Sequence record: SRR31156797_8874
Length of the DNA stretch: 38,836 nucleotides
Strand: one strand, 5' to 3'
The position numbers and the translations under genes were made by a program. Position 1 is the first letter of the stretch; each line of letters opens with the position of its first letter. Below, piece by piece: positions 1-34,166 of the stretch. The notes under the pieces were generated by a model. The model was not told the origin of the DNA. It searched no databases and worked only from the letters and a program-made list of their open reading frames with translations.

Positions 1-83
1 TATGGACCATTTTATTTTGGCATCGAGCCTAATCCGGCAAACTAATACATGACAAAAAAGTAGTAATTTGATATTTTCTTTGG

Positions 84-1145
84 ATGGAGAAATTTGACGC
101 CCGAAAACTGAGCACAGATGCTCAACAGGAAATTCGTTACCAGGTTATTCGACTGAAGAAAAAAGGTCATAAACGATCTAAAATCAGCGAGATCACTGGG
201 GTTCACCAAGGGACAATTTCAGCCTGGTTCACATTGTATAAAAAAGGCGGCAAAAAGGCCTTAAAAATTAAAAAACAGGGTCGCCCCACTGGAAGCAATC
301 GGACCCTGACACCGGATCAGGAAAAAGTGATTCAGAAGGCCATGTACGATAATTGCCCTGATCAAATGAAATTGCCTTTTGCATTGTGGACACGGATTGC
401 TGTCCAACAACGGATTGCTGTCCAACAATTGATCAGGCAGCTTTGGTCAATCAAAATGCCCATACGTAGTGTCGGAGAATATTTAAAAAGATGGGGTTTT
501 ACCCCACAACGCCCTCTGCGTAAAGCATATAAATAAAACCCCAAGGCCGTTAAAACCTGTCTTGAAACAGAATATCCAAAGATTGCCAGGAAGGCAATTA
601 AAGAAGACGCCCAAATTCAATGGGGGGATGAAACCGGTCTTTGCAACGATGGTTATCATGGTCGAAGTTACGCACCACGTGGTGAGACACCAGCTATTCA
701 AATTCATCCAAGATGCAAAAGAGTTAATTTGATTTCTATAGTCACAAACCAAGGTAAAGTCCGATTTATGGTCTATGATGATAAAATAAATTCCCAAACA
801 TTAATTAAATTTATGAGCCGATTAATCAAAGATTTTGATAAAAAGATATTTTTGATCTTAGATAACCTTAAAGTCCACTATAGCTACATTGTAAAGGATT
901 GGTTAAGAGTCCATAAAACAAAAATTGAAGTATTTTATCTGCCCGCCTATTCACCGGAATTGAATCCTGATGAATATTTGAATTGCGATTTAAAGGTTGG
1001 TGTTCATTCGGGCGTTCCCGCACGGACGAAGGACCAGTGAAAGCGAAAAGCTATATCTCATTTGAGAAAGCTGCAAAAATTACCAAATCGGATTAAGAAA
1101 CATTTTAAACATCCTAAAATTGCTTATGTGAAGGCAGCTATTTAA
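84..1145 (+). pseudogene. IS630-family transposase pseudogene (two in-frame stop codons)
   Basis: One reading frame: N-terminal HTH, WGFTPQRP, then WGDETG, LILDNL and LPAYSPELNPDE (DDE motifs). Interrupted by TAA at 534-536 and TGA at 1038-1040; the frame continues KRKAISHLRKLQKLP... to TAA at 1143-1145. Confidence 0.92.
393..428 (+). repeat. Perfect 18-bp tandem duplication inside the transposase
   Basis: CGGATTGCTGTCCAACAA occurs twice in tandem, encoding RIAVQQ-RIAVQQ. Confidence 0.95.
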
Positions 1146-1176
1146 TTGCCGGGTTAATATATTATGAGGGTCATAA

Positions 1177-1773
1177 ATGAGTCTTCCAAAAAATTTTATC
1201 CAAGAAACAATAGATGAACATTTACAAATTATAAAAATGCTGAAGCATGATAGTAAATTTATAATTAATCTTTTTGAGATATCTGAATTGATAACAAATT
1301 CTTTTATACAAGGTGGAAAGTTGCTTATTTGCGGTAATGGTGGAAGCGCTGCTGACTCACAGCACATTGCGACAGAATTAGTCAGCAGGTTTTTCATGGA
1401 AAGGCGTGCGTTGGATGCTGAAGCATTGAGCGTCAATACGTCTACTCTTACGGCAGTTGCCAATGACTATTGCTTTGATAAGGTCTTTTCAAGGCAGATA
1501 GAAGCAAAGGGAAAAAAAGAAGACGTACTTTTAGCAATTTCGACGAGTGGCAATTCCAAAAATGTTATTGAAGCGATCAAGTCTGCCAAAAATATTGGGA
1601 TGATAACCATTGGATTGTTTGGTAACAATACAGACAGTTTGATTTGTAAAATGTCGGATTATTATGTGTCAATTCCATCTAATTCTACACCTAGAATTCA
1701 GGAATCGCATATCCTCATAGGGCATATTATTTGTGAAATAATAGAATTAAACTTATTTAAAAAAGGAGATTAA
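1177..1773 (+). CDS. gmhA: Phosphoheptose (sedoheptulose-7-phosphate) isomerase, SIS domain
   Basis: Motifs CGNGGSAADSQH, ANDY, ISTSGNS and PRIQESH; 198 aa. Confidence 0.92.
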   Translation: MSLPKNFIQETIDEHLQIIKMLKHDSKFIINLFEISELITNSFIQGGKLLICGNGGSAADSQHIATELVSRFFMERRALDAEALSVNTSTLTAVANDYCFDKVFSRQIEAKGKKEDVLLAISTSGNSKNVIEAIKSAKNIGMITIGLFGNNTDSLICKMSDYYVSIPSNSTPRIQESHILIGHIICEIIELNLFKKGD

Positions 1774-1775
1774 TA

Positions 1776-2621
1776 GTGTCAATTTTTGTTATTGCTGAAA
1801 TAGGAATTAATCACAATGGTGATGTTGGGATCGCAAAAAAATTGATTGATGTTGCATGCTTAGCAGGGGCCGATGCGGTAAAATTTCAAAAAAGAACTAT
1901 TGATATTGTTTACACAAAGGAAATGCTTGATTCTCCAAGGGAAAGTCCTTGGGGTACTACACAGCGAGAGCAAAAGGAAGGCCTTGAGTTCGGGCTTGAA
2001 GAATATCAAGAATTAGATGCATATTGCAAACAAAAGGGAATAGACTGGTTTGCTTCTGCATGGGATATGGAAAGTCAAAAATTTTTAAGACAATTTGATT
2101 GCAAATACAATAAAGTTGCATCAGCTATGATGGTTTATGAGGAATTGTTAAAAGTAATTGCATCAGAAAAAAAACATACATTTATTTCTACCGGCATGTG
2201 CGACTTTGATCAAATTGACAGGGCCGTAGAGATCTTTAAGGAAGCAGGATGCCCATTTGAACTCATGCATTGCATTTCGACCTATCCCATGAATGACACA
2301 GATGCTAATTTAAACTGCATTAAGACACTTCAGGATCGTTATAAGTGCGATGTGGGTTACAGCGGACATGAAGTCGGATTGGCCGTATCATACGCAGCAG
2401 CAGCCCTTGGAATCACTTCTTTGGAAAGACATATTACCATTAACAGGGCAATGTATGGGTCAGACCAGGCAGCCTCTGTTGAGACTGCTGGTTATATACA
2501 ATTGGTTGGAGCTGTCAGAAAGATTGAAAAAGCGATGGGTGATGGTAAAGTGAGCTTTACTGCCAATGAAATTCCAGTTGCAAAAAGTCTCAGGGCGCAT
2601 ATTCCGTTTGAATCTAATTGA
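1776..2621 (+). CDS. NeuB-family ulosonate synthase, short form without the C-terminal SAF/antifreeze-like domain
   Basis: IAEIGINHNG, DAVKFQKR, GYSGHE and LERHIT motifs; 281 aa; no KRPG segment; GTG start with AAGGAG RBS inside the end of gmhA. Confidence 0.9.
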   Translation: MSIFVIAEIGINHNGDVGIAKKLIDVACLAGADAVKFQKRTIDIVYTKEMLDSPRESPWGTTQREQKEGLEFGLEEYQELDAYCKQKGIDWFASAWDMESQKFLRQFDCKYNKVASAMMVYEELLKVIASEKKHTFISTGMCDFDQIDRAVEIFKEAGCPFELMHCISTYPMNDTDANLNCIKTLQDRYKCDVGYSGHEVGLAVSYAAAALGITSLERHITINRAMYGSDQAASVETAGYIQLVGAVRKIEKAMGDGKVSFTANEIPVAKSLRAHIPFESN

Positions 2622-2635
2622 TACAGGGAAAACAC

Positions 2636-3328
2636 ATGGCTAAAGCTGTTGCAATCATTCTTGCAAGGGGGGGGTCCAAAGGCATTCCAGGGAAAAATAT
2701 TGTTGACTTCTGCGGAAAACCATTAATTGTTTGGACAATCGAACAGTTCCAACGCGCAAATGGAATTGATTCTATTTGGGTCAGTTCAGACAGCGAGGAA
2801 ATTCTTGCTGTGGGGAGAAACTGTGGTGTTGAAACGATACTTAGGCCAGATGACATTTCCAGCGATGTTGCCACTTCTGAATCCGGGTGGCTTCACGCCT
2901 TGGAGATTATAGAAAATAAAGTGGGGACAGTTGATATCGTAATTGCACCCCAAGTTACTTCGCCCTTACGGGAAACAACTGATATAGAATCTGGTCTCTG
3001 TGATTTTCAGAAACAAAAATGTGATTCAATGTTCACTTGTAGTGTTGTGGAAGACTTTTTTCTCTGGAGAAAAATGACGGACGGGACATTGGAAAGTGTA
3101 AACTATGATTATAGAAATCGGAAGCGGCGCCAGGAGATAGCTGAAAAATATATTGAAAATGGATCTTTTTACATCTTTAAACCGAAGGTATTGCGGCGAG
3201 ATAACAACCGCCTCGGTGGAAAAGTTGGCTTAAAACAGATGGAATTCTGGAAAATGTTCCAGATTGATGAACCTTCAGATATTAAATTATGTCAGGTCGT
3301 CATGCGTGGCTATGGGTTAGATAAATGA
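2636..3328 (+). CDS. Acylneuraminate (CMP-ulosonate) cytidylyltransferase, NeuA/KdsB family
   Basis: ILARGGSKGIPGKN, QVTSPLR, ENGSFY and QIDE motifs; ATG 2636 preferred over TTG 2618. Confidence 0.9.
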   Translation: MAKAVAIILARGGSKGIPGKNIVDFCGKPLIVWTIEQFQRANGIDSIWVSSDSEEILAVGRNCGVETILRPDDISSDVATSESGWLHALEIIENKVGTVDIVIAPQVTSPLRETTDIESGLCDFQKQKCDSMFTCSVVEDFFLWRKMTDGTLESVNYDYRNRKRRQEIAEKYIENGSFYIFKPKVLRRDNNRLGGKVGLKQMEFWKMFQIDEPSDIKLCQVVMRGYGLDK

Positions 3329-4098
3329 CATTTTGTTTTGAACAACTTTTTTCACTAAAAGGAAAAGTTGCTGTTGTTACAGGTGCGTCAAGAGGGATTG
3401 GTGCAGCTATTGCCAAAGGCTTTGTTTTAGCCGGTGCCCATGTGATTGGATTTGGGCGTTCTCCTGTTCCCGAGTGGAGCGAAAGTCAAATCAGCGCAGG
3501 TCTTGAATATTGGATTTGTGATATTACTGATGAAGAACAGCTGGAGAACCAGATAAGCCGAATTTATAAGCAAGAAAAGCGTATAGATATTCTAGTTAAT
3601 GCGGCCGGGATTACGCTTTCTGCAAATGAAACTGACAGCCAAGAAAAAATGTTCACCAAATTTGATAAAACGATTAATGTCAATTTACGAGCTGCTTATC
3701 GTGCTACAATGCTGACAGCTAAATTTATGCATGATAACGGTTCCATTATTAATATAACGAGTATTAACAGCATGGTTGGTTTTCCAGGCAATCCTGGCTA
3801 TGTAGCCTCCAAAGGAGGACTACGAATGCTAACCAAAGCACTGTCAATTGACTTGGCAAGCCAAGGTATTCGGGTTAATGCTATTGCACTTGGCTATTTT
3901 CGTACAGCTATGACAGCATATAGTTATGCAGATAAGAAATTACGTGCTAAACGGTTGGAACGGATGATCCTTAAGCGTTATGGTGAACCAAATGAGGTAG
4001 TAGGCGCAGCAATTTTTCTTGCTTCGGAAGCCTCTTCTTATATGACTGGACAAGATATATGTATAGATGGAGGCTGGACTGCCAAGGGGATAGATTAG
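3325..4098 (+). CDS. Classical short-chain dehydrogenase/reductase (gluconate-5-dehydrogenase-like)
   Basis: TGASRGIG, VNAAG, YVASK and DGG motifs; ATGA overlap with the upstream gene. Confidence 0.88.
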   Translation: MTFCFEQLFSLKGKVAVVTGASRGIGAAIAKGFVLAGAHVIGFGRSPVPEWSESQISAGLEYWICDITDEEQLENQISRIYKQEKRIDILVNAAGITLSANETDSQEKMFTKFDKTINVNLRAAYRATMLTAKFMHDNGSIINITSINSMVGFPGNPGYVASKGGLRMLTKALSIDLASQGIRVNAIALGYFRTAMTAYSYADKKLRAKRLERMILKRYGEPNEVVGAAIFLASEASSYMTGQDICIDGGWTAKGID

Positions 4099-4133
4099 AA
4101 GTGTTTGGGAGTGATTTTTAAAGTGAGGACAAA

Positions 4134-4934
4134 ATGAAGGCATATTTTAATGGATTGTATTGTGTTCACCTGGAGTTAACCAGCAGATGCAACAAGAATT
4201 GCTGGATGTGCGGCAGGAGAAAAATAGACAAAGAACACCCCGAAATAGCCATAAATTATGGTGATATGGATTTTGAGCTGATTAAAAGAATAGCAGAACA
4301 GTTGCCAGAAGGGATTGTAATTCAATTCCATAACAACGGCGAACCATTGCTCTATCCAAAATTTGGAGAAGCCGTCAAATTATTCAAAAATCAAATTAGA
4401 TGCTTAGATACTAATGCTAAACTTATTGTTGATAAGGCTGATGAGATTATCGATAACCTGGATACCATAACTATTTCTATTTTCGAAAAAGATCCGGAAG
4501 GAGACGAGCAGTATGAGCTTGTCAAGAAATTTCTTGAGATTAAAGGGGATAGAAAGCCAAATTTAATATTCAGATGCTTGGGAGATGTGGATACAAAAAG
4601 GTGGGAGGAGTTAGACGGGATTATTGCTACCAGGATATTGCATAATCCACTTGGAAGCTTCAAATATAGCAAAAAACCGACTGTGCCGGAAATCGGAATA
4701 TGCCTGGAAATTTTGAATCACATGGCCATAAACAGATTCGGCGAAGTTTCCATTTGTGTGAGATTTGATCCCAAGCGTCTTGGAGTCATCGGAGATGCAA
4801 CTGTGGATTCATTATTAGATATCTGGAACGGAACAAAAAGAAAAGACTGGGTTCAGGATCATATTCAGGGGAAAAGAGATAAAATCCCCTTGTGCAGTTA
4901 TTGTGATTTTTGGGGAGTGCCGACAGGGATTTGA
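4134..4934 (+). CDS. Radical SAM protein with SPASM/twitch-like C-terminal domain
   Basis: CNKNCWMC (CxxxCxxC), NGEPLL, and C-terminal cysteines (ICLE...VSIC...CSYC). Confidence 0.88.
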   Translation: MKAYFNGLYCVHLELTSRCNKNCWMCGRRKIDKEHPEIAINYGDMDFELIKRIAEQLPEGIVIQFHNNGEPLLYPKFGEAVKLFKNQIRCLDTNAKLIVDKADEIIDNLDTITISIFEKDPEGDEQYELVKKFLEIKGDRKPNLIFRCLGDVDTKRWEELDGIIATRILHNPLGSFKYSKKPTVPEIGICLEILNHMAINRFGEVSICVRFDPKRLGVIGDATVDSLLDIWNGTKRKDWVQDHIQGKRDKIPLCSYCDFWGVPTGI

Positions 4935-4943
4935 TGATGAAAA

Positions 4944-5087
4944 GTTATGATATCATAACCATGTTTCATTTATTGAGGCATATTTCTGATCTCCAAAAAG
5001 TATCAGAAAACATCAAACAATAACATGTCTTAAAGTGGTTCAAAGTCAGTATTTCCGACTTTTTTCACTTTTACAGGTTCAAGTGAA
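4944..5087. promoter_or_regulatory. Cluster of four intergenic inverted repeats, function unknown
   Basis: Perfect palindrome GTTATGATATCATAAC (4944-4959); TTTCTGAT/ATCAGAAA (4983-5009); AAAGTC/GACTTT (5042-5062); TTCACTT/AAGTGAA (5064-5087). Confidence 0.4.
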
Positions 5088-5120
5088 CATGAAAATTGCC
5101 AAGAAAACATAAACTCATTA

Positions 5121-6932: not shown

Positions 6933-7053
6933 TTAAGTCTGGTTCAAGGCTTCTTTTATTTTAAAAAATTTCCACCGCCGGCAGAGATAACAGATCTCTG
7001 AAATGGGATTGTTAAGGAAAGATTTTGGCAACAGACTTTGTAGAGAGCAAAAA

Positions 7054-8034
7054 ATGAAAAGAGTACTTATCACAGGGGCTGACGGATTTATCGGTTCACA
7101 TCTTACTGAAATGTTGGTTGCCAAAGGCTGTCAAGTAAAGGCACTTTCTCAGTATAATTCCTTCAATAATTGGGGATGGTTGGAGGAGGTTGATTGTAAA
7201 GATCAAATTGAAATCTTGGCTGGAGACGTGCGAGATCCTTATTACTGTAAGCATATCACAAAAAATATAGATGTCGTTTTTCATCTCGCAGCACTGATTG
7301 CTATACCATACTCCTATACAGCTCCAGAAAGTTATGTGGATACGAACATAAAGGGAACACTCAATATTTGTCAGGCGGCACGCGAAAATGATGTGAATCG
7401 TGTCATTCATACATCGACAAGTGAAGTGTATGGCACTGCTCAGTATGTTCCGATTGACGAAAAGCACCCATTGCAACCACAATCTCCCTATAGTGCCACT
7501 AAGATTGCTGCCGATGCAATAGCAATGAGTTTCCATAATGCCTTTGATCTGCCGGTTACCATTGCTCGGCCATTTAACACTTATGGCCCGCGCCAATCTG
7601 CACGGGCAGTAATTCCAACTATAATTACGCAAATTGCAAACGGTAAAAAAGAAATTCAATTGGGTGATGTGGCGCCGACGCGGGATTTCAACTATGTAGA
7701 AGATACCTGCAGAGGTCTCATTGCTCTGGCTGAATGTGATACCGTTATTGGTCGAACACTCAATATTGGCTCGAACTATGAAATCAGCGTGGGTGACACC
7801 CTTAATATCATTAAAGAACTGATGGGGAGTGATGTAAGATTTATTGTCGATGAACAGCGTCTACGGCCGGGTAAATCAGAGGTTTTCCGACTCTGGTGTG
7901 ATAATAGCAAAATAGTAGCGTTAACGGGATTTAAACCAGAGGTTGATATACGCGAGGGGCTGCAAAAGACGATTGATTGGATTACACAGCCAGAACACCT
8001 GAAAACCTACAAAGCAGAAATTTATAATGTTTGA
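7054..8034 (+). CDS. legB: NDP-GlcNAc 4,6-dehydratase, LegB-like
   Basis: GADGFIGSH, YNSFNNWGWL, HLAALIAIPYSY, TSTSEVYG and YSATK motifs; start taken at ATG 7054. Confidence 0.85.
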   Translation: MKRVLITGADGFIGSHLTEMLVAKGCQVKALSQYNSFNNWGWLEEVDCKDQIEILAGDVRDPYYCKHITKNIDVVFHLAALIAIPYSYTAPESYVDTNIKGTLNICQAARENDVNRVIHTSTSEVYGTAQYVPIDEKHPLQPQSPYSATKIAADAIAMSFHNAFDLPVTIARPFNTYGPRQSARAVIPTIITQIANGKKEIQLGDVAPTRDFNYVEDTCRGLIALAECDTVIGRTLNIGSNYEISVGDTLNIIKELMGSDVRFIVDEQRLRPGKSEVFRLWCDNSKIVALTGFKPEVDIREGLQKTIDWITQPEHLKTYKAEIYNV

Positions 8035-9190
8035 TGATTTTGTGAATTTTGTGCGAGAACTCTATGGCACCAATGATTACATCCCATTACATGAGCCTCG
8101 ATTTGTTGGCAATGAAAAAAAATATTTGCTCGAAACTATTGATACAACCTTTGTTTCAAGTGTTGGTAAATTCGTCGATGATTTTGAATCTGCCGTTGCA
8201 GAATATACAGGTGCAAAATTTGCTATTGCCACAGTGAACGGAACAGCGGCATTGCATACGGCACTGAAGTTGGCAGATGTCAATAGTTGCGATGAAGTTA
8301 TCACTCAGTCGTTAACATTTGTGGCGACTTGCAATGCCATTCGCTATTGTAATGCCGAGCCGGTTTTTGTGGATGTTTGCAGGAAAACTCTTGGACTCTC
8401 ACCAAAAAGTGTAAAAGCTTTTCTTGAAGAACATTGCGAAGTGCGAACTGATGGTTGCTGTTGGAACAAGAAAACGAATCGAATCGTTCGTGCCTGTGTC
8501 CCCATGCATACCTTTGGTTTTCCAGTTCAACTGGATGAACTGAAGTTAATTTGTGATCAGTACAACATTGTTTTGGTCGAGGAGGCGGCTGAATCGCTCG
8601 GTAGTTTTTATAAGGGGCGGCATACTGGTACCACGGGCAAGGTCGCTATCCTCAGTTTTAATGGCAACAAGATTGTTACCACCGGTGGTGGTGGTATAAT
8701 CCTTACTAATGACAAGGAACTTGCCACTCAGGCTAAGCACATCACCACAACGGCAAAGCTTTTACATAGTTGGGATTTTGAGCATGATGAGACCGGTTTC
8801 AACTACCGACTTCCTAATATCAATGCAGCGCTTGGTGTGGCGCAGATGGAGGCTTTGGCCGGATTCGTTGACAAGAAGCGTGAAGTCGCTATGCGATATC
8901 AAGAGTGGGGTAAAGAAAAAGGCGTACGTTTTGTACTGGAACCAGATGATACAAAAGCAAACTATTGGTTGAACGCCGTCATCACCAAAGACAAGCAACA
9001 GCGGGATTTAATGTTGGAGCACACAAATAAAAACCATGTGATGACTCGTCCAGCATGGACGCCCATGCATAGACTACCAATGAACTTATATTGTCAACAT
9101 GATGAATTAAAAAACACCGAGTGGCTATTTGAACGTTTGGTGAATATTCCAAGTAGCGTTCCTCAAGGGGCAACTCACATTAATGGCTAA
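8027..9190 (+). CDS. legC: LegC-family PLP-dependent sugar aminotransferase
   Basis: IPLHEP, FVSSVG, SFNGNKIVTTGGGG, FNYRLPNINAALG and NIPSS motifs; directly follows legB. Confidence 0.88.
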   Translation: MFDDFVNFVRELYGTNDYIPLHEPRFVGNEKKYLLETIDTTFVSSVGKFVDDFESAVAEYTGAKFAIATVNGTAALHTALKLADVNSCDEVITQSLTFVATCNAIRYCNAEPVFVDVCRKTLGLSPKSVKAFLEEHCEVRTDGCCWNKKTNRIVRACVPMHTFGFPVQLDELKLICDQYNIVLVEEAAESLGSFYKGRHTGTTGKVAILSFNGNKIVTTGGGGIILTNDKELATQAKHITTTAKLLHSWDFEHDETGFNYRLPNINAALGVAQMEALAGFVDKKREVAMRYQEWGKEKGVRFVLEPDDTKANYWLNAVITKDKQQRDLMLEHTNKNHVMTRPAWTPMHRLPMNLYCQHDELKNTEWLFERLVNIPSSVPQGATHING

Positions 9191-10073
9191 ACATTGTAAT
9201 AATGAAGTTGCCGTTGTAGGGGTTGTTTACCCAGGCATAGAAGACTATTTGGAAGATTATTTTTGTTCTCTTGAAAAACAGACCCTTAAACATTTCGATC
9301 TGATAATCGCTAATGACGGATTGAAAAAAGACATAGCATCGTTGCCCGGTCGAGGTATAAATTCTTACATCATTAATGTTGATGGGACTGTCTCTTCAAA
9401 CAGGAGAACATTAATTAATGAGGTGATAGAGAGAGGATACCAAAAGATTATTTTCACAGACTGTGATGATGTTTTTAAAGAGAATCGTTTTGAGGTTGCT
9501 TGTGATTTGCTCGATATTTTCTCCATTGTAACAAATGAGTTAGATCTTATCGACCCGGATGGCGAAGAAAACCAGACAGACTTCTTTTCCACTCGTTTTG
9601 GCAAATCAAGAACAATAACTGTAAATGACCTAATTTCTGGAAACATGATGGGTTTATCAAATACAGCTTTGAAAATAGAGGTTCTTCAAGATTGTCCAGC
9701 TCTGATATCAGGAGAATCCATCGCATTCGATTGGTACTTATGGTCGTCAATCCTGCTGAAAGGCTACAAAGCGATGTTCACAGCAGAAACATCCACCAAG
9801 TATCGAATCCATGATCAAAATATAGCTGGACTCCCGCAACCACTTACCGAAAAAAGTGTAGCAAAAGGCGTTGAAGTCAAGCTACAACATTATGGATTGA
9901 TGTCAAAGTATGATGACATGTACTCAGAATTGGCAATCGAGTTCCAGAGAGTTAGCGAGCAATTAGAGGATAAAATCTGGCAAAAGGAATACTTGGCAGC
10001 CCTTCAGGAGTGCGCGATTGACCAGCACATGTGGTGGGAAAACATTCGAATACCTTTAGATGTAGGATTATAA
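9183..10073 (+). CDS. GT2/GT-A-fold-like protein of uncertain function
   Basis: SLEKQT..FDLIIANDG, DxD motif FTDCDD, AFDW and YRIHDQN. Confidence 0.65.
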   Translation: MAKHCNNEVAVVGVVYPGIEDYLEDYFCSLEKQTLKHFDLIIANDGLKKDIASLPGRGINSYIINVDGTVSSNRRTLINEVIERGYQKIIFTDCDDVFKENRFEVACDLLDIFSIVTNELDLIDPDGEENQTDFFSTRFGKSRTITVNDLISGNMMGLSNTALKIEVLQDCPALISGESIAFDWYLWSSILLKGYKAMFTAETSTKYRIHDQNIAGLPQPLTEKSVAKGVEVKLQHYGLMSKYDDMYSELAIEFQRVSEQLEDKIWQKEYLAALQECAIDQHMWWENIRIPLDVGL

Positions 10074-10074
10074 A

Positions 10075-11130
10075 ATGAAAATAAAACTCACAAAAAATCG
10101 TTTTATTGGAAAAGCCGAAAAACCTTATATTATAGCAGAACTTGGATCAAACCATAATGGAGACATGGAGTTAGCAAAAAAACTCATTGTGGCGGCCAAG
10201 GAGGCTGGCGCGGACTGTGTTAAGTTCCAGTCATGGTCTAAAGAGACAATTTTTTCTAAAAAGACCTATGAGGCCAATTATTTCTTAGCTGATGACTACC
10301 GTAACCGCAATGATTTTACCCTTGAAGAAATTGTTGAAGAATATGCCATTTCAGAACAGGAATTGCTTGAAATGAAATGTTTCTCCGATGAGATTGGGAT
10401 TGATTGCACATCAACTCCTTTCTCAAATAGGGAGGTTGATTTTTTAGTAGAGAAGATGGACGTTGATTTTATAAAGATTGCATCCATGGATCTTAATAAC
10501 TATCCATTTATTGAGTATGTCGCTTCAAAAGGCAAGCCAATCGTTCTCGCTACCGGATTGAGCACTTTAGCAGAAATAGATACCGCTATCCAAGCCATTG
10601 AGAACACAGGTAATGATCAGATTGTAATCATGCACTGTGTTTCCATTTATCCACCTGAAGACCGACAAGTTAATCTGCGTAACATGGATACCTTATATCA
10701 GGCATACCAATATCCAGTAGGTTTTTCTGACCACACCATGGGGACTTGTGTGCCGCTTGCGGCAATTGCGCGAGGTGCATGCCTTATTGAGAAACACTTT
10801 ACACTGGATAAGACCATGGAAGGTTGGGATCATAAAGTTTCTTCAGACCTAAACGATATGAAAATATTGGTTAACGATGCGCACCGCATTCACACTGCCT
10901 TGGGGGCAGCAAGAGTAACTCGAGTTGAAAATAAAGAGCGTCTGGGAGCATTTCGCCGAAGTATTGTTGCCGCAAGAGACATTCGTAAAGGTGAAATGTT
11001 TTCTAAAGAGATGCTTGATTCAAAACGGCCAGGAACTGGATTAAAGCCGGAAGTTGTCAGGTATATTATTGGAAAGAAGGCAACGCGGGATATTTCCTAT
11101 GACGAAATCATTGCTTTTGAGGATTTTTAA
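10075..11130 (+). CDS. NeuB-family nonulosonic acid synthase with SAF domain (LegI-like)
   Basis: IAELGSNHNG, VKFQ, KIASMD, GFSDHT and IEKHFT motifs; C-terminal RRSIVAARDI...KRPGTG. Confidence 0.9.
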   Translation: MKIKLTKNRFIGKAEKPYIIAELGSNHNGDMELAKKLIVAAKEAGADCVKFQSWSKETIFSKKTYEANYFLADDYRNRNDFTLEEIVEEYAISEQELLEMKCFSDEIGIDCTSTPFSNREVDFLVEKMDVDFIKIASMDLNNYPFIEYVASKGKPIVLATGLSTLAEIDTAIQAIENTGNDQIVIMHCVSIYPPEDRQVNLRNMDTLYQAYQYPVGFSDHTMGTCVPLAAIARGACLIEKHFTLDKTMEGWDHKVSSDLNDMKILVNDAHRIHTALGAARVTRVENKERLGAFRRSIVAARDIRKGEMFSKEMLDSKRPGTGLKPEVVRYIIGKKATRDISYDEIIAFEDF

Positions 11131-11150
11131 TTGCAACCAGGTATGAAACT

Positions 11151-12107
11151 ATGAAGATAGGTTATTTTGCAGATGGACCTTGGTCTCATTTAGCTCTCGA
11201 GATGATTACTAATGACGATCGATTCGAGGTGGCCTTTATTGTCCCGCGCTATGACACCCAAGATCCGATTCTCAAACAGTGGAGTGTGAGGCTTGGCGTT
11301 GATTACCTTTGCATCAGAAACGTCAATCAGCCAGAAAGTATAGAAAGATTGAAAAGCTATGGAGCAGACATCTTTGTTTCAATGTCATTCAATCAGATAT
11401 TAAAGGCAGAAATAATAGAAGCCACACCGCTTGGTTTCATCAACTGTCATGCTGGCGCACTGCCATTATACCGGGGCCGCAATATTCTTAACTGGGTTTT
11501 GATAAATGATGCACCAGAGTTTGGCGTCACAGTTCATTATGTAGATACTGGGATTGATACTGGAGACATCATCATACAAAGAATGGCTGGCATTACAGAC
11601 GAAGATGATTACAAAACACTCCTTGATCGAGCAATCATTTTATGTGCAGAGCTTTTGCTTGAAGCTCTGATCAGCTTTGCGGACGGTACGGTCCAGCGAA
11701 AATCTCAGTTAGATTTTAACTCAATTGGGTTTTATTGCGGTCGTCGTCGCAAAGGAGATGAGTGGATTAATTGGCATTGGCCGAGTCGTAGAATTTTTAA
11801 TTTTATCCGTGCTATCACAGACCCGGGGCCATGCGCCCATACACTACTCGATGGGCAATTAATCAAGATTAAAAAGGCCGTTCCCATACAAGGAGCAATT
11901 GATTACATAGGAGAGCCTGGTGAGATTGTTGGAATAGAGAATGAAGGATTTGTTGTGAAGACCGGAGACTCAACTATTCTCATAATTAATATCGAACCGA
12001 CTTCCAATGTCAATAAATTAAGAATCGGACGGCGCTTTGGGGGGAAAAATCAAATGGTAATTGAAAAGTTGCAGGAACGAATTTCAACACTTGAAAAAAA
12101 ATTGTAG
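11151..12107 (+). CDS. N10-formyl-THF-dependent sugar N-formyltransferase (Fmt-like)
   Basis: INCHAGALPLYRG and VHYVDTGIDTGDI motifs plus an Fmt-like C-terminal domain; located inside the nonulosonate module. Confidence 0.85.
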   Translation: MKIGYFADGPWSHLALEMITNDDRFEVAFIVPRYDTQDPILKQWSVRLGVDYLCIRNVNQPESIERLKSYGADIFVSMSFNQILKAEIIEATPLGFINCHAGALPLYRGRNILNWVLINDAPEFGVTVHYVDTGIDTGDIIIQRMAGITDEDDYKTLLDRAIILCAELLLEALISFADGTVQRKSQLDFNSIGFYCGRRRKGDEWINWHWPSRRIFNFIRAITDPGPCAHTLLDGQLIKIKKAVPIQGAIDYIGEPGEIVGIENEGFVVKTGDSTILIINIEPTSNVNKLRIGRRFGGKNQMVIEKLQERISTLEKKL

Positions 12108-12208
12108 AACTCGATATGCACCCGAAAATAAAATCATTTTTTTGATGGCGCTCGGAACTTTTACCCAGCCATCTTATGACATTTTAACCAAAAAAAAGAA
12201 GAAGAAAC

Positions 12209-12898
12209 ATGTTAGCTATAATTCCAGCTCGTGGAGGAAGTAAGGGCTTACCAGGAAAAAACATTCGCTCTTTGGGAGGAATACCCCTTATTGCTCATTC
12301 TATTCGTGAGGCTTTAAATGCAGATTTTGTAACACGGGTTATTGTGTCAACAGATGATTTGGAAATCGCCTCTACTGCAAAGAAGTTTGGAGCAGAAGTG
12401 CCATTCTTGCGCCCGCCTGAACTTGCAACAGACAATGCCATGGTTATGGACACCTATCTCTATACGGTAGACCGAATTGCTGAAGAAGATAAAGAATCAA
12501 TTGAATCATTTATTGCTTTGCTACCCACCGTCCCTCTAAGGGCTGCAAAAGATATAGATGAAGCCGTCCAAATATTTAATCATAAAAAAGCAGATTCTGT
12601 AATTAGTGTTACAGATGCACCTGTTCCTGTGCAATGGTATAGAAGAATTCGTGATGATGGAGTTCTCTGTGATTATTTGCCAGGCTTTGATGCTGTTAGA
12701 AATCGCCAGGAGATCGAACATACATATGTACCCAATGGCGCTGTATATGTTTTCCGCACTGAAGTATTACGTTCAACGCGACAATATTATACAGAGGGAA
12801 CCTATCCGTATGTTATGCCGCGTGAGCGCTCAGCAGACATTGATGTGATGCTTGATTTTGAGTGGGCAGAGTTTTTATTAAAGAAAAAGATAGTCTAA
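12209..12898 (+). CDS. CMP-nonulosonate synthetase (NeuA/LegF-like)
   Basis: IIPARGGSKGLPGKN, VPFLRPPELATD, PTVPLR, PNGAVY and DID motifs. Confidence 0.9.
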   Translation: MLAIIPARGGSKGLPGKNIRSLGGIPLIAHSIREALNADFVTRVIVSTDDLEIASTAKKFGAEVPFLRPPELATDNAMVMDTYLYTVDRIAEEDKESIESFIALLPTVPLRAAKDIDEAVQIFNHKKADSVISVTDAPVPVQWYRRIRDDGVLCDYLPGFDAVRNRQEIEHTYVPNGAVYVFRTEVLRSTRQYYTEGTYPYVMPRERSADIDVMLDFEWAEFLLKKKIV

Positions 12899-13891
12899 AT
12901 GGAGACTCTTTATAAAGCTGCTGTTGTTGGATTGGGAAGAATCGGCTCTTCTTATCCGTCTGCAGATATTCCACGCACCCACACCTGTGCATACAAAGAA
13001 AATAAAAGAATAAAAGTTGTCGCCGGAGTTGACCCTGATGTCCATGCACGTATGGCTTTTGCTGAAAAATGGGGTAATGAGATATCTGTCTTTTCCTCTG
13101 TTACAGAAATGTTGTCAGAAGTTCAACCGGATATAATTAGTCTGTGTGTTCATCCTTTTATCTTACCACAGATTGTTGAAGAGTGTCGGTTATCCCCCCC
13201 AAAACTCTTTTTTTTGGAAAAACCGGTGGTGGTACATCCTGACCAAGTTCCTCTGCTTCAGACGGCAATTAACAATGTGCCTGCGGCCGTTAACTATCAT
13301 CGTTGCTGGGATCCTGTACATATACGATTTTTTGAAAAAGTGTTTGCCTTAGGTGAGGTTGTGGCCGTCAGGGTGATATACAACAATGGGATGTTTAATT
13401 ATGCCAGTCATGCTATTTCATTGCTGCTTCATCATTTTGGCTCAGTTTCAAGTGTAACAAAGCTAGGAAACAGAACTTATGATGATTCTATAGCTGATCC
13501 GTCTTTTGATTTTATCCTTGGATTTGAGTCAGGTTTTGATGCTGTTTTTCAAGGTTTTGATGGACTTCCATATGACCTGCTGGAGTTGGAAGTTATATCC
13601 ACAACTGGCATATATACACTTAAAGCGGCCGGCTGCAGGCGCCGCATGGAACTTCCCAAGAAAAATACTTTTTATCCCGGCTATACGCAACTCATTGACG
13701 CGCCCCCCCTTGAAATTGATTCTCCCGTTGAAGGATTACCTCAGGCAATAGGTAATATCGTTAATTTTTTGGATGGAGAAACATCCAGCCTATCATGTGA
13801 CTTGACTCTGGGGCTGGATGTTTTTGATATACTTTGGCGCGTAAAAGAACTTACCCCCCTAAACCAAGAGAGTGGAGAAAATGGTAACTAA
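12899..13891 (+). CDS. Gfo/Idh/MocA-family NAD(P)-dependent oxidoreductase
   Basis: VVGLGRIG, LEKP, VNYHR and NYASH motifs. Confidence 0.82.
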   Translation: METLYKAAVVGLGRIGSSYPSADIPRTHTCAYKENKRIKVVAGVDPDVHARMAFAEKWGNEISVFSSVTEMLSEVQPDIISLCVHPFILPQIVEECRLSPPKLFFLEKPVVVHPDQVPLLQTAINNVPAAVNYHRCWDPVHIRFFEKVFALGEVVAVRVIYNNGMFNYASHAISLLLHHFGSVSSVTKLGNRTYDDSIADPSFDFILGFESGFDAVFQGFDGLPYDLLELEVISTTGIYTLKAAGCRRRMELPKKNTFYPGYTQLIDAPPLEIDSPVEGLPQAIGNIVNFLDGETSSLSCDLTLGLDVFDILWRVKELTPLNQESGENGN

Positions 13892-15182
13892 ACCAGCAAT
13901 CCTAGGTGGAGAACCTGAAAACATTAAAGTCTTTCCACCGTACAATACTATTGGCGATGAAGAGAAAAAGGCTGTCATGGATGTACTCGAAAGTGGTGAA
14001 CTTTCTGGTTTTGTTGCAGCCCCAATTCCTGAATTTAACGGAGGCCCACAAGTAAAGGCCTTAGAACAAGCGTTTTGTGACTATTTTGACGTCAAACATG
14101 CTGTTGCTGTCAATTCAGCCACAAGTGGACTCTATTGCATGCTGATGGCTATGGGGATTGGACCGGGGGATGAGGTAATCACATCTCCCTATACAATGCA
14201 TGCAACAGCTTCAAGCGTATTACAATGCGGGGCTGTTCCTATTTTTGCAGATATTGAAGACGAAACATTTGGATTGGATCCTAAATCAGTCAGGGAAAAT
14301 ATAACTGAAAACACCAAGGGTATTCTTGCAGTCAATATATTTGGCCACGCTGCTCAGTTAAACGAATTGAAAGAGATTGCAATTCAGCATGACCTTTGGT
14401 TACTTGAGGATAATGCCCAGGCACCCGCAGGTATTCTTGAAGGTGAAAATTTTACAGGGACAATAGGACGTGCCGGAGTTTTTAGTTTCAATAGGCACAA
14501 AACAATGCAGAGCGGTGAAGGCGGAGTTGTTATCACCAATGATGATGCTATTGCCCAAAAGATGAGACTTGTCCGTAATCATGGTGAAACAGTTGTTTCA
14601 GCATGGGAAATTGAAGATATTGTTAATACAATCGGGCAAAACCTCAGAATGACAGAAATGGAGGCCGCTGTCGCCCTCTGTCAGTTTCGTAAATTAGATC
14701 AATTAAACGATGCAAGGATTCAATTAGCTGAATATTTAACTCAGGCCCTTAAGGATATTCCGGGGATAATTCCTCCCCATGTTAGAGAGGACTGCAGGCA
14801 TGTTTATTATTTCTATGTTATGAAATATGATGAAAGCATAATTGGCTTATCTCGAGAAAAATTTGTCGATGCTATGCAGGCTGAAGGATATTATCTTCGT
14901 GGGGGGTATTTGCGACCAATCTATTTAGAACCCTTATTTACTCAGAAAATATGCTTTGGGAAAAACGGTTATCCTTTTACTATTAATTCACGTAATGATG
15001 ACATTATTTATGGTCACGGTCTATGCCCAACCTGTGAACGACTCGATAATGAAGAAATAGTCTTGACAAACATTATCTATCCTCCATTGACAACTAAAGA
15101 TATGGATGGCTTTATTAATGCTGTAAAAAAGATTGTTGCTTATGCTGATGAAATAGAAGAGGCCGGAGCAAATAATCGGTGA
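13881..15182 (+). CDS. DegT/DnrJ/EryC1/StrS-family aminotransferase
   Basis: VNSATSGL, GDEVI, EDNAQA, SFNRHKTMQSGEGG and NLRMTE motifs; ATG 13881 with GGAG RBS. Confidence 0.9.
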   Translation: MVTKPAILGGEPENIKVFPPYNTIGDEEKKAVMDVLESGELSGFVAAPIPEFNGGPQVKALEQAFCDYFDVKHAVAVNSATSGLYCMLMAMGIGPGDEVITSPYTMHATASSVLQCGAVPIFADIEDETFGLDPKSVRENITENTKGILAVNIFGHAAQLNELKEIAIQHDLWLLEDNAQAPAGILEGENFTGTIGRAGVFSFNRHKTMQSGEGGVVITNDDAIAQKMRLVRNHGETVVSAWEIEDIVNTIGQNLRMTEMEAAVALCQFRKLDQLNDARIQLAEYLTQALKDIPGIIPPHVREDCRHVYYFYVMKYDESIIGLSREKFVDAMQAEGYYLRGGYLRPIYLEPLFTQKICFGKNGYPFTINSRNDDIIYGHGLCPTCERLDNEEIVLTNIIYPPLTTKDMDGFINAVKKIVAYADEIEEAGANNR

Positions 15183-16150
15183 TAATTTTTGTCACAGGTC
15201 AATTTGCGGCTGCACAGTATATTCATCCATTACTGAAGCGATGGGGGAGCCGTATGGCAGATTTTTGTCAAATAGTTGCAACCGGCCCCTCGTGTAAATA
15301 TTGGGATGATTGTGGCTTACCCTATACTTTTTTTGAGGATCAATCCCCTTCTGCTGTCGCCTCATACCTTGAGTTACTAAAACCCTCACTTATTGTTGTA
15401 TCTGCATCAGCCAATGAAAAACTGGAATTTAATTTTGTTGTGGAGGCCAAAGCCAAAGGAATTGACTCCGCTAGCTTCATAGATATGTGGACGAATTACC
15501 GTGCGCGTTTTCTGTATAAGGGGAAGACGGTTTTCCCTGACCACATATTAGCTATTGATGACCGATGTGCTGATGAAATGGTGGCCGAGGGAATCCCCGA
15601 TAAGAAGATCCGTATTATTGGCCAGCCATATTTGGAAATTGTTGCCTCCACACCTCCTCCACTCGGAGACAACGTATTGCTGGCAAGTCAACCCATCAGA
15701 AAGCTCAGGGGCACTAATCTTGGATACGATGAAACAGATTTTCGGAATATATGTTTGAAAGCGTTTGAAGAGTTATCAACCGATAATGTCTGCGCCACCT
15801 GTCACCCCGATGAAAAAGACACATCGGTACAAGTAGACACACCTGGACTCCTTTGGCAGTCGGGCCAAGGGATACTTGATGTTGCTCATTGCCATACCGT
15901 GCTTGGTATGTATTCTATGCAGATGGTCATTGGGTATTTGTGGGGGCGAAAAGTTGCCAGTGTTCAGCCTGGCTTATGTACCAATGATCCTTCGCCCCTG
16001 TCTCGATGGGGGTTGATTCCCCTCCTTGAGCGAGTTGATGATCTCGTCGATTTCATTCAGAATAGTGACGAGGGGGAAAGACAGGGAGATTTCTTATTTA
16101 ACCTCGACGGTAGTCTCAATCGGTTCGAAGCATTTTGTCGCAACGGCTAA
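15179..16150 (+). CDS. Hypothetical GT-B-like protein, possible ulosonate transferase
   Basis: IDMWTNY, IIGQPYLE, LLASQP, CHP and LGMYSM segments resemble GT-B transferases; GTGA overlap with the aminotransferase. Confidence 0.45.
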   Translation: MIIFVTGQFAAAQYIHPLLKRWGSRMADFCQIVATGPSCKYWDDCGLPYTFFEDQSPSAVASYLELLKPSLIVVSASANEKLEFNFVVEAKAKGIDSASFIDMWTNYRARFLYKGKTVFPDHILAIDDRCADEMVAEGIPDKKIRIIGQPYLEIVASTPPPLGDNVLLASQPIRKLRGTNLGYDETDFRNICLKAFEELSTDNVCATCHPDEKDTSVQVDTPGLLWQSGQGILDVAHCHTVLGMYSMQMVIGYLWGRKVASVQPGLCTNDPSPLSRWGLIPLLERVDDLVDFIQNSDEGERQGDFLFNLDGSLNRFEAFCRNG

Positions 16151-16335
16151 CCAGTTCAACCGAATAAAATATTATCAGAGATCTTGGCAAAATCCGAAGG
16201 AAATTAGATCAAAGGTCTCATAGAGGTTTTTATAAATTATGCCAGAATCGCAAGGGATTCATAAATGCATAAGGTTTGCAGATAATAATACGGAACCTGA
16301 CTGAAAAACTCTTGAAATGTGGGAACAACGAAACT

Positions 16336-17457
16336 ATGAGATTTTGTAAAAAATGCGTTAATGTGGATACTCGTCCCAATACTCAATTTGACGCCGAGGG
16401 GTTATGCCCTGTTTGTTTAAATAACAAATTGAAGGATTCAGGGAAAATAGATTGGGGCGAGAGGACCAAGGAACTCAAAAAAATTGCAGATTGGGGTAGG
16501 GCGCAGTCGAAATGCTCGTATGATTGTATCGTTGCTGTTAGCGGAGGAAAGGACAGTATGCGGCAATCCATGTATGTCAGAGATGAATTGAAAATGAAGC
16601 CTTTGTTAGTTAGCTGTACATATCCGCCTGAGCAACAGCATTCTCGATGCCAGGACAATTTCAGTAATCTTATTTCATATGGATTTGATGCCATCTCAGT
16701 TAGTCCCAATCCGCAAATCTGGAAAAAATTGATGCGTCATGCATTTTTTACCTATGGGAACTGGTGTAAAGCAACTGAATTGGCTCTTTATTCAATACCA
16801 ATTCATGTCTCAATTGCCTATCAGATTCCTCTTGTTTTTCTAGGCGAAAATCCAGCTATGATGATAGGTGAACAACACGGAACATTAGATGGTGATGCCA
16901 CTGGAATGAAACATTGTAATACGTTGGGAGGTGGCGATCCTTCAAAATTTATGTCTCAGGATGTAAGAGAAAAAGACTTGTTTTTTTACACCTATCCAAG
17001 TGACGAGGATATGGAACAGGGCAAGGTGAGAATCGTGTATTTAGGATACTACATCGAGGATTTCGTTGGCTATGTCAACGGTAACCTTGCAATTGAGCAA
17101 GGCATGAAGGTGAGAACTGAGTCTCCCGAACAGATTGGTGATCTCTGGGGTTTTACCGGTCTTGATGAGGATTGTCGCATTGTCAATCAAATGATCAAAT
17201 ACTATAAATTCGGTTATGGGACTGTAATAGACCAGGCCTGCGATGCCATAAAGTTAGGTATGATGACCCGGGAGGAGGCCGTAACACTTGTCCGCAAGTA
17301 TGATGGTAAATGTGACTATTCGTTCATCAAATGGGTGTGTGGTTTTCTTGAAATTTCAGAGGAAGAGTTCTGGGATACTGTTGAATCCCTAATAAACAAA
17401 GACTTGTTTGAAAAGAACAGAGACGGGAAATGGGTTCCAACTTTTGAGGTTTGTTAA
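16336..17457 (+). CDS. N-acetyl sugar amidotransferase (WbpG/WbuX/PseA family), copy 1
   Basis: N-terminal CKKC...TRP...CPVC, PP-loop VSGGKDS, KYYKFGYG and MTREEA. Confidence 0.88.
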   Translation: MRFCKKCVNVDTRPNTQFDAEGLCPVCLNNKLKDSGKIDWGERTKELKKIADWGRAQSKCSYDCIVAVSGGKDSMRQSMYVRDELKMKPLLVSCTYPPEQQHSRCQDNFSNLISYGFDAISVSPNPQIWKKLMRHAFFTYGNWCKATELALYSIPIHVSIAYQIPLVFLGENPAMMIGEQHGTLDGDATGMKHCNTLGGGDPSKFMSQDVREKDLFFYTYPSDEDMEQGKVRIVYLGYYIEDFVGYVNGNLAIEQGMKVRTESPEQIGDLWGFTGLDEDCRIVNQMIKYYKFGYGTVIDQACDAIKLGMMTREEAVTLVRKYDGKCDYSFIKWVCGFLEISEEEFWDTVESLINKDLFEKNRDGKWVPTFEVC

Positions 17458-17458
17458 G

Positions 17459-18118
17459 ATGTGTCATGAAAAAAATATAAAAAAAATAGCTGTTGTTAAT
17501 TATGGCATGGGAAATATAGGGTCGGTCTGCAATGCATTGGATTTTCTCAAGGGAAATTATTCTGTTGCCAAAACGCCCGCCGAATTGGAAGGCGCAGATG
17601 CTTATATCCTCCCCGGTGTGGGTGCTTTCAGCGCAGCGATGAAAGCTTTGACAAAATCGGGGATGGGTGAAACGTTAACCCGCCTGGTTGTTGAGCAACA
17701 AAGGCCATTTTTGGGGATATGCCTGGGGATGCAGTTGATCGCCAAAAATTCAATTGAATATGAATATACTGAGGGGCTGGGCTGGATTGATGCAAACGTT
17801 GTTCATCTTCCTCCCGGTGAAGGACTGAGGGTTCCTCACGTGGGATGGAATAATCTATCCATAAGCATCAAACAGCCACTGTTTGACAGAATAGATGAAC
17901 ATAATAATTTTTTCTATGACCATTGTTTTCATTTTCAGTGTCACGATAATAGCGTTGTGGCGGCGACATGCAATTACGGTATTACCTTTGTTGCTGCAGT
18001 CCAGAAGGATAATATTTTTGCAACGCAGTTTCACCCGGAAAAGAGCCAGAGGAGTGGTTTGAAAGTCCTGAGATCATTTCTAAATTATATTGAAAACACT
18101 AATCGTACGGTGATGTAA
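17459..18118 (+). CDS. HisH-like class I glutamine amidotransferase (WbuY-like)
   Basis: YGMGNIGSV, LPGVGAF, GICLGMQ (catalytic Cys), VPHVGWN and QFHPEKS (His-Glu). Confidence 0.9.
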   Translation: MCHEKNIKKIAVVNYGMGNIGSVCNALDFLKGNYSVAKTPAELEGADAYILPGVGAFSAAMKALTKSGMGETLTRLVVEQQRPFLGICLGMQLIAKNSIEYEYTEGLGWIDANVVHLPPGEGLRVPHVGWNNLSISIKQPLFDRIDEHNNFFYDHCFHFQCHDNSVVAATCNYGITFVAAVQKDNIFATQFHPEKSQRSGLKVLRSFLNYIENTNRTVM

Positions 18119-33600: not shown

Positions 33601-33734
33601 GATAATTACAGTGTTAAACCGATTAGATGAGAATTGTTGCCGCATAAAGAGTGATATGTCATATTGACTCTGACTTAGATAATTTCAGGAAAAGTACGTT
33701 TTTAACCTCAAATATGATTATAGGAGATAAACTT

Positions 33735-34166
33735 GTGGAAAAGATTTTTAATGATGATCCAAGGGACTGGCCAAAAGATATTCGTGTTAATTTAGAGGCC
33801 GCTCATGAAGATGATCGTGGTTTTATTCAATGTCTAGTAAACTTGCCGACTCGAAATATTTCTCTGATTTTTTCAGAGAAAGGATCAGTTCGATCCAACC
33901 ACTACCATAAGACAGACTGGCATTATATGTATATCCTCTCCGGCAGTATGGATTATTACTATCGTCCCCACGGAGATAAAGGTGAAATCAAGAAGGTAAC
34001 TCTTAAAAAAGGAGACATGGTTTTCACTCGTCCAATGGAAGAGCACACTACTTTTTTTCCGGAAAGCACTAACTTTTTGGCTATTAGCCGTAATCCCAGG
34101 GATCAAGAAGCTTATGAAGCAGATGTCGTTAGAGTCCAACTGATTGACCCTGAGAGCCTGGTATGA
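33735..34166 (+). CDS. Cupin-domain protein (FdtA/QdtA 3,4-ketoisomerase- or RmlC-like fold)
   Basis: EDDRG, RSNHYHK...HYMY and EEH motifs; GTG 33735 chosen because of the AGGAG RBS upstream. Confidence 0.75.
   Translation: MEKIFNDDPRDWPKDIRVNLEAAHEDDRGFIQCLVNLPTRNISLIFSEKGSVRSNHYHKTDWHYMYILSGSMDYYYRPHGDKGEIKKVTLKKGDMVFTRPMEEHTTFFPESTNFLAISRNPRDQEAYEADVVRVQLIDPESLV

Follow-up and report, generated by a model that had tools for sequence, protein, structure and literature searches.

A GmhA-linked, SAF-less NeuB-family synthase as a candidate route to ten-carbon ulosonic acids

The described nonulosonic acids are all built from a hexose and phosphoenolpyruvate (PEP), and the described synthases of the NeuB family all make nine-carbon (C9) acids; rare, possibly ten-carbon (C10) acids have been reported (PMC8157484). 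In the route to 2-keto-3-deoxynononic acid (Kdn) activated with cytidine monophosphate (CMP), exemplified by the BT1714 synthase and Kdn-9-phosphate phosphatase of Bacteroides thetaiotaomicron and by the Kdn-9-phosphate synthase of Prymnesium parvum, use of mannose 6-phosphate is strict, and heptose 7-phosphate lay outside the tested substrates (PMC6200933). In Magnetospirillum gryphiswaldense, CMP-linked C10 acids, N-acetylated and unassigned, have been seen by mass spectrometry (bioRxiv 10.64898/2026.04.20.719630). Environmental bacteria have NeuB enzymes without the SAF domain, in a paper whose available text makes no mention of heptose (PMC8208679); the Kdn synthase of Serratia is of a longer, fused type (PMC9000132), and the available part of a Leptospira paper mentions neither heptose nor an isomerase (PMC3438082). 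Names for deculosonic (dec-2-ulosonic) acid found no match in the literature, most subscription papers being out of reach, and a search of titles and the beginnings of abstracts for a NeuB and gmhA cassette and for the substrate range of GmhA returned nothing on the cassette. The biosynthesis of ten-carbon, sialic-acid-like sugars appears to be undescribed. Here we analyze five genes, beginning with gmhA and a SAF-less neuB, that are candidates for such a pathway; they lie in sequence record SRR31156797_8874, one whole contig of 38,836 bases that we call the window.

The block comprises the following genes:

1177..1773, + strand: GmhA, sedoheptulose-7-phosphate isomerase family, 198 amino acids (SIS_2)
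1776..2621, + strand: SAF-less NeuB-family PEP-condensing synthase, short-loop subfamily, 281 amino acids (PF03102 without PF08666)
2636..3328, + strand: NeuA-type CMP-ulosonate synthetase (PF02348, CTP_transf_3)
3325..4098, + strand: classical short-chain dehydrogenase/reductase (SDR), cassette-specific subfamily (PF13561, adh_short_C2)
4134..4934, + strand: Twitch/SPASM radical S-adenosylmethionine (SAM) enzyme, BtrN-like (Pfam Radical_SAM and SPASM)

The five genes had been described as tightly coupled, and the gaps of 2, 14, -4 and 35 nucleotides are exact, with all open reading frames (ORFs) on the + strand. The cytidylyltransferase starts at the ATG at 2636, with a TTG in frame at 2618.

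Judging from the genes and their relatives, the cassette probably makes a ten-carbon ulosonic acid from heptose 7-phosphate and PEP, which would then be dephosphorylated, CMP-activated and tailored. GmhA, its active site intact, would carry out the activity of its family and convert sedoheptulose 7-phosphate to D-glycero-D-manno-heptose 7-phosphate. This product is manno-configured, a configuration accepted by NeuB-family enzymes, and the cassette has no heptose kinase to consume it. The short-loop SAF-less NeuB would condense it with PEP to give 3-deoxy-dec-2-ulosonate 10-phosphate, that is, Kdn plus one CHOH. The phosphate may be removed by a KdsC-type phosphatase of the haloacid dehalogenase (HAD) family, either cut off here by an insertion sequence (IS) or supplied as a housekeeping KdsC, and NeuA, by its family activity, would form the CMP-sugar. 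The BtrN-like radical SAM enzyme would then create a ketone, via dehydrogenation or diol dehydration; an amine may then be added by an aminotransferase in most relatives, and in the window the SDR may reduce the ketone again to an epimer or a deoxy sugar. The product would enter a surface polysaccharide together with a legionaminic-acid derivative from the downstream genes. The condensation of heptose, or heptose 7-phosphate, with PEP to a 3-deoxy-dec-2-ulosonate was the core of the original prediction, and it stands as the leading hypothesis. The neighborhood search proposed there, for this NeuB clade with gmhA in the absence of hddA, found gmhA in 31 and hddA in none of the best 80 synthase-family loci in genomes (profiles were built from related loci, and several contigs are short), and close relatives of the synthase in Pelagibacteraceae are accompanied by gmhA in 19 of 19 genomes.

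The synthase belongs to the NeuB/NANS family by its TIM barrel and its Mn- and PEP-binding residues. In alignment, E8, K36, Q38, K113, S116, Y170, S196, H198, E217, H219 and D230 match Neisseria meningitidis NeuB, and these 11 metal and PEP residues are invariant across 49 aligned rows. The predicted model has a mean predicted local distance difference test score (pLDDT) of 95.7, and its best Foldseek matches are 6NCS and 1XUU (TM 0.85). It falls outside canonical NeuB, LegI and PseI: the SAF domain, with the equivalent of Arg314, is absent (no PF08666), the scores lie below the TIGR03569 and TIGR03586 cut-offs, and the position of N. meningitidis E134 is occupied by Met118. Among the matches listed, at least 120 homologues are 80-91% identical, and the nearest genome loci are Desulfobacteraceae-type metagenome-assembled genomes (MAGs). 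A quick tree of 91 rows places the synthase inside a 56-row clade (support 100), separate from the actinobacterial SAF-less enzymes.

A loop after a conserved WG/FG splits the SAF-less enzymes: of 205 sequences, 169 have a short loop, 31 a long one, and 5 are unclassed. The short loop has nine residues, with Gln or Asn at 63 and Gln or Leu at 66; the long loop has ten, with Tyr at both positions. The window synthase, which has S57 and L70, carries a nine-residue loop with Q63 and Q66, which sets it apart from the long-loop class (actinobacterial, presumed Kdn), and its subfamily lacks the two tyrosines and one further residue that 31/31 long-loop synthases retain. By alignment, the loop corresponds to residues near Asn74 in N. 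meningitidis NeuB. In the human enzyme, a loop of this region favors phosphorylated substrates (PMC8208679), and we read it as the same loop. Loss of the two tyrosines may make room for a longer aldose. The short-loop subfamily probably arose once, in a single evolutionary event. On balance, we favor the view that the short-loop SAF-less NeuB is a dedicated 3-deoxy-dec-2-ulosonate 10-phosphate synthase and that C10 sugars coat many environmental bacteria, including SAR11, and marine phages.

GmhA was said to have intact motifs, and it matches the consensus of heptose-operon enzymes at every one of the 17 conserved active-site positions examined. Among these are NGGS, the residues H63, E67, Q175 and H183, and the phosphate loop S122-T123-S124-S127, whose zinc-binding, catalytic and phosphate-binding roles we presume from GmhA structures. 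GmhAs in the PDB match at E = 1e-48. The 17 positions are alike in 40 NeuB-linked and 35 heptose-operon GmhAs, with scattered conservative changes only. The simplest reading is that the linked GmhA would do its ordinary job. In quick trees (LG+G4; rows at least 80% identical merged; rows of unknown context and two long-branch rows omitted), NeuB-linked GmhAs spread over the tree with 9 changes, of which the starred branches force only 2. Monophyly of the linked enzymes is marginally rejected with 75 rows (approximately unbiased (AU) test, p = 0.04). Repeated recruitment of GmhA is not established.

If GmhA supplies the synthase, then the two should occur together. In a sample of 251 Pelagibacteraceae genomes, which includes a centre genome (G045), GmhA occurs in 41 and a SAF-less NeuB in 35. 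All 19 genomes with a synthase at least 55% identical to that of the window have gmhA, compared with 22 of 232 others; with the centre genome excluded, the counts are 18/18 and 22/232 (Fisher p = 9e-17). In the 19, gmhA lies on the neuB contig within ~11 kb, on either side or on the opposite strand. By loop type, GmhA occurs in 20/20 short-loop and 2/15 long-loop-only genomes (p = 7e-8), where the 20 include one classed by identity since its loop lies off the contig (G053) and one whose GmhA match is weak and on a different contig (G062), and where one of the two long-loop copies sits in an ordinary hddA-hddC-gmhB operon. The link survives both this reordering and strong divergence of GmhA, the linked Pelagibacteraceae copies having a median identity of 45%. 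Of the 19 genomes, 15 also have KdsD (one under the cut-off) and 17 a type II phosphomannose isomerase (PMI) domain (a domain match, not an activity), which would make GmhA redundant as a source of arabinose 5-phosphate or mannose 6-phosphate.

Other groups were sampled similarly. In an actinobacterial order, where GmhA was matched in 16/301 genomes, gmhA is adjacent to 4/5 short-loop synthases and occurs in 0/2 long-loop-only genomes; one of the four adjacent genes fell under the search cut and was seen in a separate search, the fifth synthase ends a 2.4-kb contig, and five further long-loop genomes lay outside the GmhA check. In a cyanobacterial class of 296 genomes, gmhA is adjacent in 2/2 carriers, a count with no background GmhA frequency. 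Among 50 carrier genomes from many phyla, GmhA occurs somewhere in 45; of the other five, one (L028) has a contig that ends within gmhA, and the remaining four carry an HldE-like gene. Cultured carriers include Phormidium sp. FACHB-1136, with the order gmhA-kdsC-neuB (L040), Azospirillum thermophilum CFH 70021 (NZ_CP029359.1) and Alteromonas sp. a30. When we looked up gmhA outside the cassette in 20 genomes, it lay beside hldE or gmhB in 9, so a housekeeping copy could serve there. In 11 carrier MAGs with a cassette-linked gmhA there is no strong HldE or HddA match, the MAGs being incomplete.

The original prediction saw no phosphatase and expected dephosphorylation to be supplied from elsewhere. 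The absence from the window was borne out by a six-frame hidden Markov model (HMM) search, but the cassette regularly includes a KdsC-type phosphatase, which occurs in 47 of the best 80 loci; these hold only 3 GmhB and 2 HldE. The best NCBIfam match of the phosphatase is PRK09484; it is fused to GmhA in six loci (L024, L037, L058, L083, L084 and G806) and elsewhere to NeuA. The closest relative of the window block (L082) has the order kdsC-gmhA(79%)-neuB(90%), so the IS in the window occupies the usual place of kdsC. Among the six closest GmhA relatives in metagenomes, this NeuB comes directly next in four (L082-L085), and in these kdsC lies upstream or is fused wherever the contig extends that far; the other two (L081 and L148) have neither NeuB nor heptose genes alongside. 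These two GmhA relatives (L081:2114-2764 and L148:1552-1944; 79-80% identical) are stranded among toxin-antitoxin-like genes, and that of L148 is frameshifted. Elsewhere in the family, an enzyme dependent on thiamine pyrophosphate recurs beside the synthase (L033, L043, L044, L062, L065, L076, L223 and L228), possibly for carbon transfer or branching, and a LIC12162-family transferase (TIGR04331), a candidate dedicated transferase, follows the cassette in 7 loci, including L011:16664-18409. Three Anaerolineales loci (L067, L069 and L078) hold three NeuB-family genes each: short-loop with gmhA, long-loop, and a 636-amino-acid fused form.

The later enzymes point to a CMP-activated, tailored product. 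The CMP-transferase is nearer to CMP-sialic acid synthetases than to KdsB: its best PDB match is 9t4z, 'PpNeuA' (E = 6e-27), 1qwj also matches (E = 5e-25), and KdsB matches at E = 1e-7 or weaker. With a NeuB-family synthase and a NeuA-like transferase in place of KdsA- and KdsB-family enzymes, the block lies outside the Kdo (3-deoxy-D-manno-oct-2-ulosonic acid) pathway. The radical SAM enzyme fits the BtrN-like twitch class in its CX3CX2C motif, four-cysteine auxiliary cluster and BtrN-like fold. C19/C23/C26 and the auxiliary C190/C208/C254/C257 are invariant, and BtrN is its best PDB match by profile (E = 9e-14) and by fold (E = 3e-8), although the model has a pLDDT of only 66 and fold matches also include EpeE, DesII, SpeY and BlsE.

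We counted tailoring genes in the 128 loci left after dereplication, in which merging at 92% reduced an initial 143. The radical SAM enzyme occurs in 20, and in 18 of those 20 it is accompanied by a class III or IV aminotransferase, a pairing that would require a ketone and does not tell whether the route is oxidation, dehydration or epimerization. A UlaE-like TIM barrel occurs in 42/128 loci and in 0/20 with the radical SAM enzyme (p = 2e-4), and the SDRs that accompany the barrel are likewise found in 0/20 (p = 2e-6). Because neither co-occurs with it, we infer that the radical SAM enzyme may take the place of the SDR/TIM module in forming the ketone. The SDR of the window has PDB matches like gluconate 5-dehydrogenase and relatives of at least 39% identity in 27/128 loci; of the 20 radical SAM loci, only the window has this other SDR type of the cassette without a class III/IV aminotransferase. 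Since the radical SAM enzyme is paired here with an SDR rather than an aminotransferase, the net tailoring is likely to be epimerization or deoxygenation. Two genes further downstream (12899-15182), for a DegT-type aminotransferase and a Gfo oxidoreductase, could contribute to tailoring too.

The synthase also occurs in viruses. Many viral contigs (L221-L300) carry a short-loop synthase, NeuA and varied tailoring genes, and nearly all viral synthases are short-loop; in L241, L251, L262 and L278 there is a second, more distant synthase alongside, of the long-loop type in L251 and L262. KdsC occurs within 8 kb in 2/80 viral loci.

Several observations weigh against a C10 product made from GmhA-supplied heptose 7-phosphate. 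Among viral loci, gmhA lies within 8 kb in 8/80, one of them without Pfam support, and SIS_2 is found in 5/50 whole viral records and 1/6 near-complete ones; with phage copies mostly lacking gmhA, phages would need hosts that make heptose 7-phosphate. In cellular genomes, GmhA is absent from the 3 kb around 48/91 short-loop synthases. An adjacent gmhA showed a trend with absence of HldE that is not significant (8/18 versus 23/32, p = 0.07). The genome counts are not independent, since the short-loop subfamily probably had a single origin. The window GmhA scores 195 bits and does not reach the TIGR00441 cut-off of 209; this cut-off is strict, as only 4 of 45 GmhA-matching carrier genomes pass it and the 45 include many with gmhA beside hldE. 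An earlier AU test with 53 rows did not reject monophyly of the linked GmhAs (p = 0.27). Finally, the Magnetospirillum C10 acids are N-acetylated, of a pseudaminic or legionaminic acid plus CH2 type, and have no genes assigned in the available part of the preprint.

The alternative that survives best, though we think it unlikely, is a C9 product of the Kdn type, in which GmhA has shifted to fructose 6-phosphate, yielding mannose 6-phosphate and so again a manno product, or is dispensable, and NeuB makes Kdn-9-phosphate that is then tailored. The characterized phosphate-route synthases covered here all use a hexose 6-phosphate (PMC6200933), actinobacterial NeuA+HAD/NeuB pairs resembling the teichulosonic-acid genes of Streptomyces belong to the sister long-loop subfamily, and phage copies that function without their own gmhA fit a common substrate. 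However, a PMI domain is already present in nearly all of the Pelagibacteraceae with a linked GmhA, the long-loop synthases of that family mostly manage without GmhA, no active-site change marks the linked GmhAs, and the loop of the synthase is sharply unlike the long-loop type. The genomic evidence points away from use of mannose 6-phosphate by the window synthase.

Decidedly doubtful is a pathway that is linked to heptose but yields something other than a plain C10 acid, the synthase taking a modified aldose phosphate or a longer ketose, or GmhA acting later. The epimerase-like TIM barrel of so many loci and the divergence of the linked GmhAs among themselves would fit this, as would the existence of GmhA-like octose isomerases such as LmbN of lincosamide biosynthesis. 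But the barrel's exclusion from radical SAM loci places it in tailoring, and it is absent from the window.

We give still less credence to a C8 product, for which GmhA would be an arabinose-5-phosphate isomerase and NeuB would make Kdo-8-phosphate or a Kdo derivative, enzymes of other families carrying out the KdsD/KdsA/KdsC/KdsB scheme. Products with aminated Kdo (Kdo8N) are known, capsule loci frequently carry duplicates of housekeeping Kdo genes, and the phosphatase of the cassette is KdsC-like. Against this, most of the linked Pelagibacteraceae have KdsD, the CMP-transferase is far nearer to sialic-acid synthetases than to KdsB, and the P. parvum Kdn-9-phosphate synthase rejects arabinose 5-phosphate (PMC6200933). 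That gmhA is a mere bystander, the last gene of a nucleoside diphosphate (NDP)-heptose operon cut off by the IS, is very improbable: the contig ends at the IS with upstream DNA unreadable, 67 of 111 GmhAs classed by context lie in hddA/gmhB/hddC/hldE operons, and the near relatives in L081 and L148 lack NeuB, but four of the six closest relatives directly precede this NeuB, the gmhA-neuB gap is 2 nucleotides, and the synthase and GmhA co-occur across the family.

The ten-carbon pathway would be housed in a block with these borders:

27..1158, + strand: decayed IS630-family element (Pfam HTH_33/DDE_3, translation and repeats; ends approximate, placed by eye)
4935..5120, no strand: intergenic gap ahead of an ABC flippase, weakly structured

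The IS noted upstream is present; it belongs to IS630 and is dead, being interrupted by two in-frame stops and carrying a tandem duplication of 18 bp at 392-427. The contig starts ~27 bases left of its putative left end, so DNA upstream of the IS is unreadable. The downstream gap had been called hairpin-rich; support for this is modest, the fold reaching z = -2.0 only, with 4/200 shuffles equally good. No terminator-like site lies on the + strand of the gap. The claim that the window lacks gmhB, hldE, hddA and hddC holds for the first three, six-frame searches of the window with profiles from related loci giving no match to GmhB, HddA, HldE or KdsC. There is a sole HddC-like match, a CBS and nucleoside triphosphate (NTP)-transferase protein at 21429-22493, which we read as resembling PtmE of the legionaminic pathway; of an NDP-heptose set (HddA/HldE kinase, GmhB and nucleotidyltransferase), the window holds nothing but this PtmE-like gene.

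On the 3' side of the block, the ABC flippase is followed by a separate set of genes of the legionaminic-acid type, which comprises LegB and LegC, a NeuB with the SAF domain, a formyltransferase, another CMP-transferase, WbuX/HisH/WbuZ and the PtmE-like NTP transferase. Because this set is separate, the five-gene block reads as a second, self-contained ulosonic-acid module within a surface-polysaccharide locus. To go with the legionaminic-type genes (7003-12898 and 21429-22493), a scan of 38 ORFs showed no hydrolysing 2-epimerase of the NeuC/LegG kind, and a GT2-like orphan between LegC and the synthase (9183-10073) might replace it. Two WbuX amidotransferases flank HisH/WbuZ (16276-20234), which together with the formyltransferase at 11151 gives potential for acetamidino and N-formyl tailoring. 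Three orphans (15179-16150, 22481-24022 and 24065-25423) give weak hints of transferases for CMP-sugars or surface polysaccharides (PF07388 in 13% of one cluster, and weak matches to PF05159 and TIGR04396) and are candidates to transfer both acids. A cupin and a C-methyltransferase (Methyltransf_13/14) at 33651-35420 suggest a branched-chain sugar in the same polysaccharide.

If our reading is true, surface sugars have a new size class whose enzyme, substrate and sequence marker can be named, and heptose 7-phosphate gains a third fate beside ADP- and GDP-heptose. There would then be a family of C10 sialic-acid-like sugars, variously aminated, epimerized, deoxygenated and methylated, which bears on phage receptors and on ocean glycan diversity; the synthase is carried by 19/251 Pelagibacteraceae genomes. 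The routine annotation 'N-acetylneuraminate synthase' would be corrected, and a two-enzyme route to extended sialic-acid analogues would be offered.

Several known systems share parts of this cassette. Like the GDP- and ADP-heptose pathways (GmhA, HddA or HldE, GmhB and HddC), it begins with GmhA, and the active-site residues are shared, but it contains no heptose kinase, and heptose 7-phosphate would instead enter PEP condensation. With butirosin BtrN and its aminotransferase it shares a small radical SAM enzyme of the twitch type, four auxiliary cysteines included, and, in most radical SAM loci, the aminotransferase; the identity to BtrN is ~20%, the proposed substrate is a ulosonic acid, and the window pairs the radical SAM enzyme with an SDR instead. 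AprD4 and AprD3, a radical dehydratase and a reductase, form a comparable pair. A NeuA/NeuB-type pair is also found in SCO4880/SCO4881, the NeuA/NeuB-like enzymes of actinobacterial teichulosonic acid (PMC3479208, PMC13011467). The actinobacterial loci share with the synthase family of the window a SAF-less NeuB, ~50% identical, and a NeuA+HAD fusion; they differ in that their enzymes are of the long-loop type, which we assume for SCO4881, and that the loci have no gmhA. Kdn is said to have been reported by Ostash in 2014 as the product of SCO4880/SCO4881. The C10 acids of Magnetospirillum gryphiswaldense resemble the proposed product in that ten-carbon, CMP-activated alpha-keto acids occur in nature. 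There is a close likeness to the CMP-Kdn pathway (PMC6200933), whose NeuB-family synthase acting on an aldose phosphate and NeuA-type CMP activation would have counterparts in the window, and whose HAD phosphatase has a candidate counterpart in the related loci with KdsC. To this the window cassette adds GmhA, a SAF-less synthase with a short loop free of the tyrosines, and radical SAM/SDR tailoring, and its proposed substrate is heptose 7-phosphate rather than mannose 6-phosphate. The cassette is real, widespread and apparently uncharacterized; it would work like the Kdn-9-phosphate pathway while standing outside it by its synthase loop.

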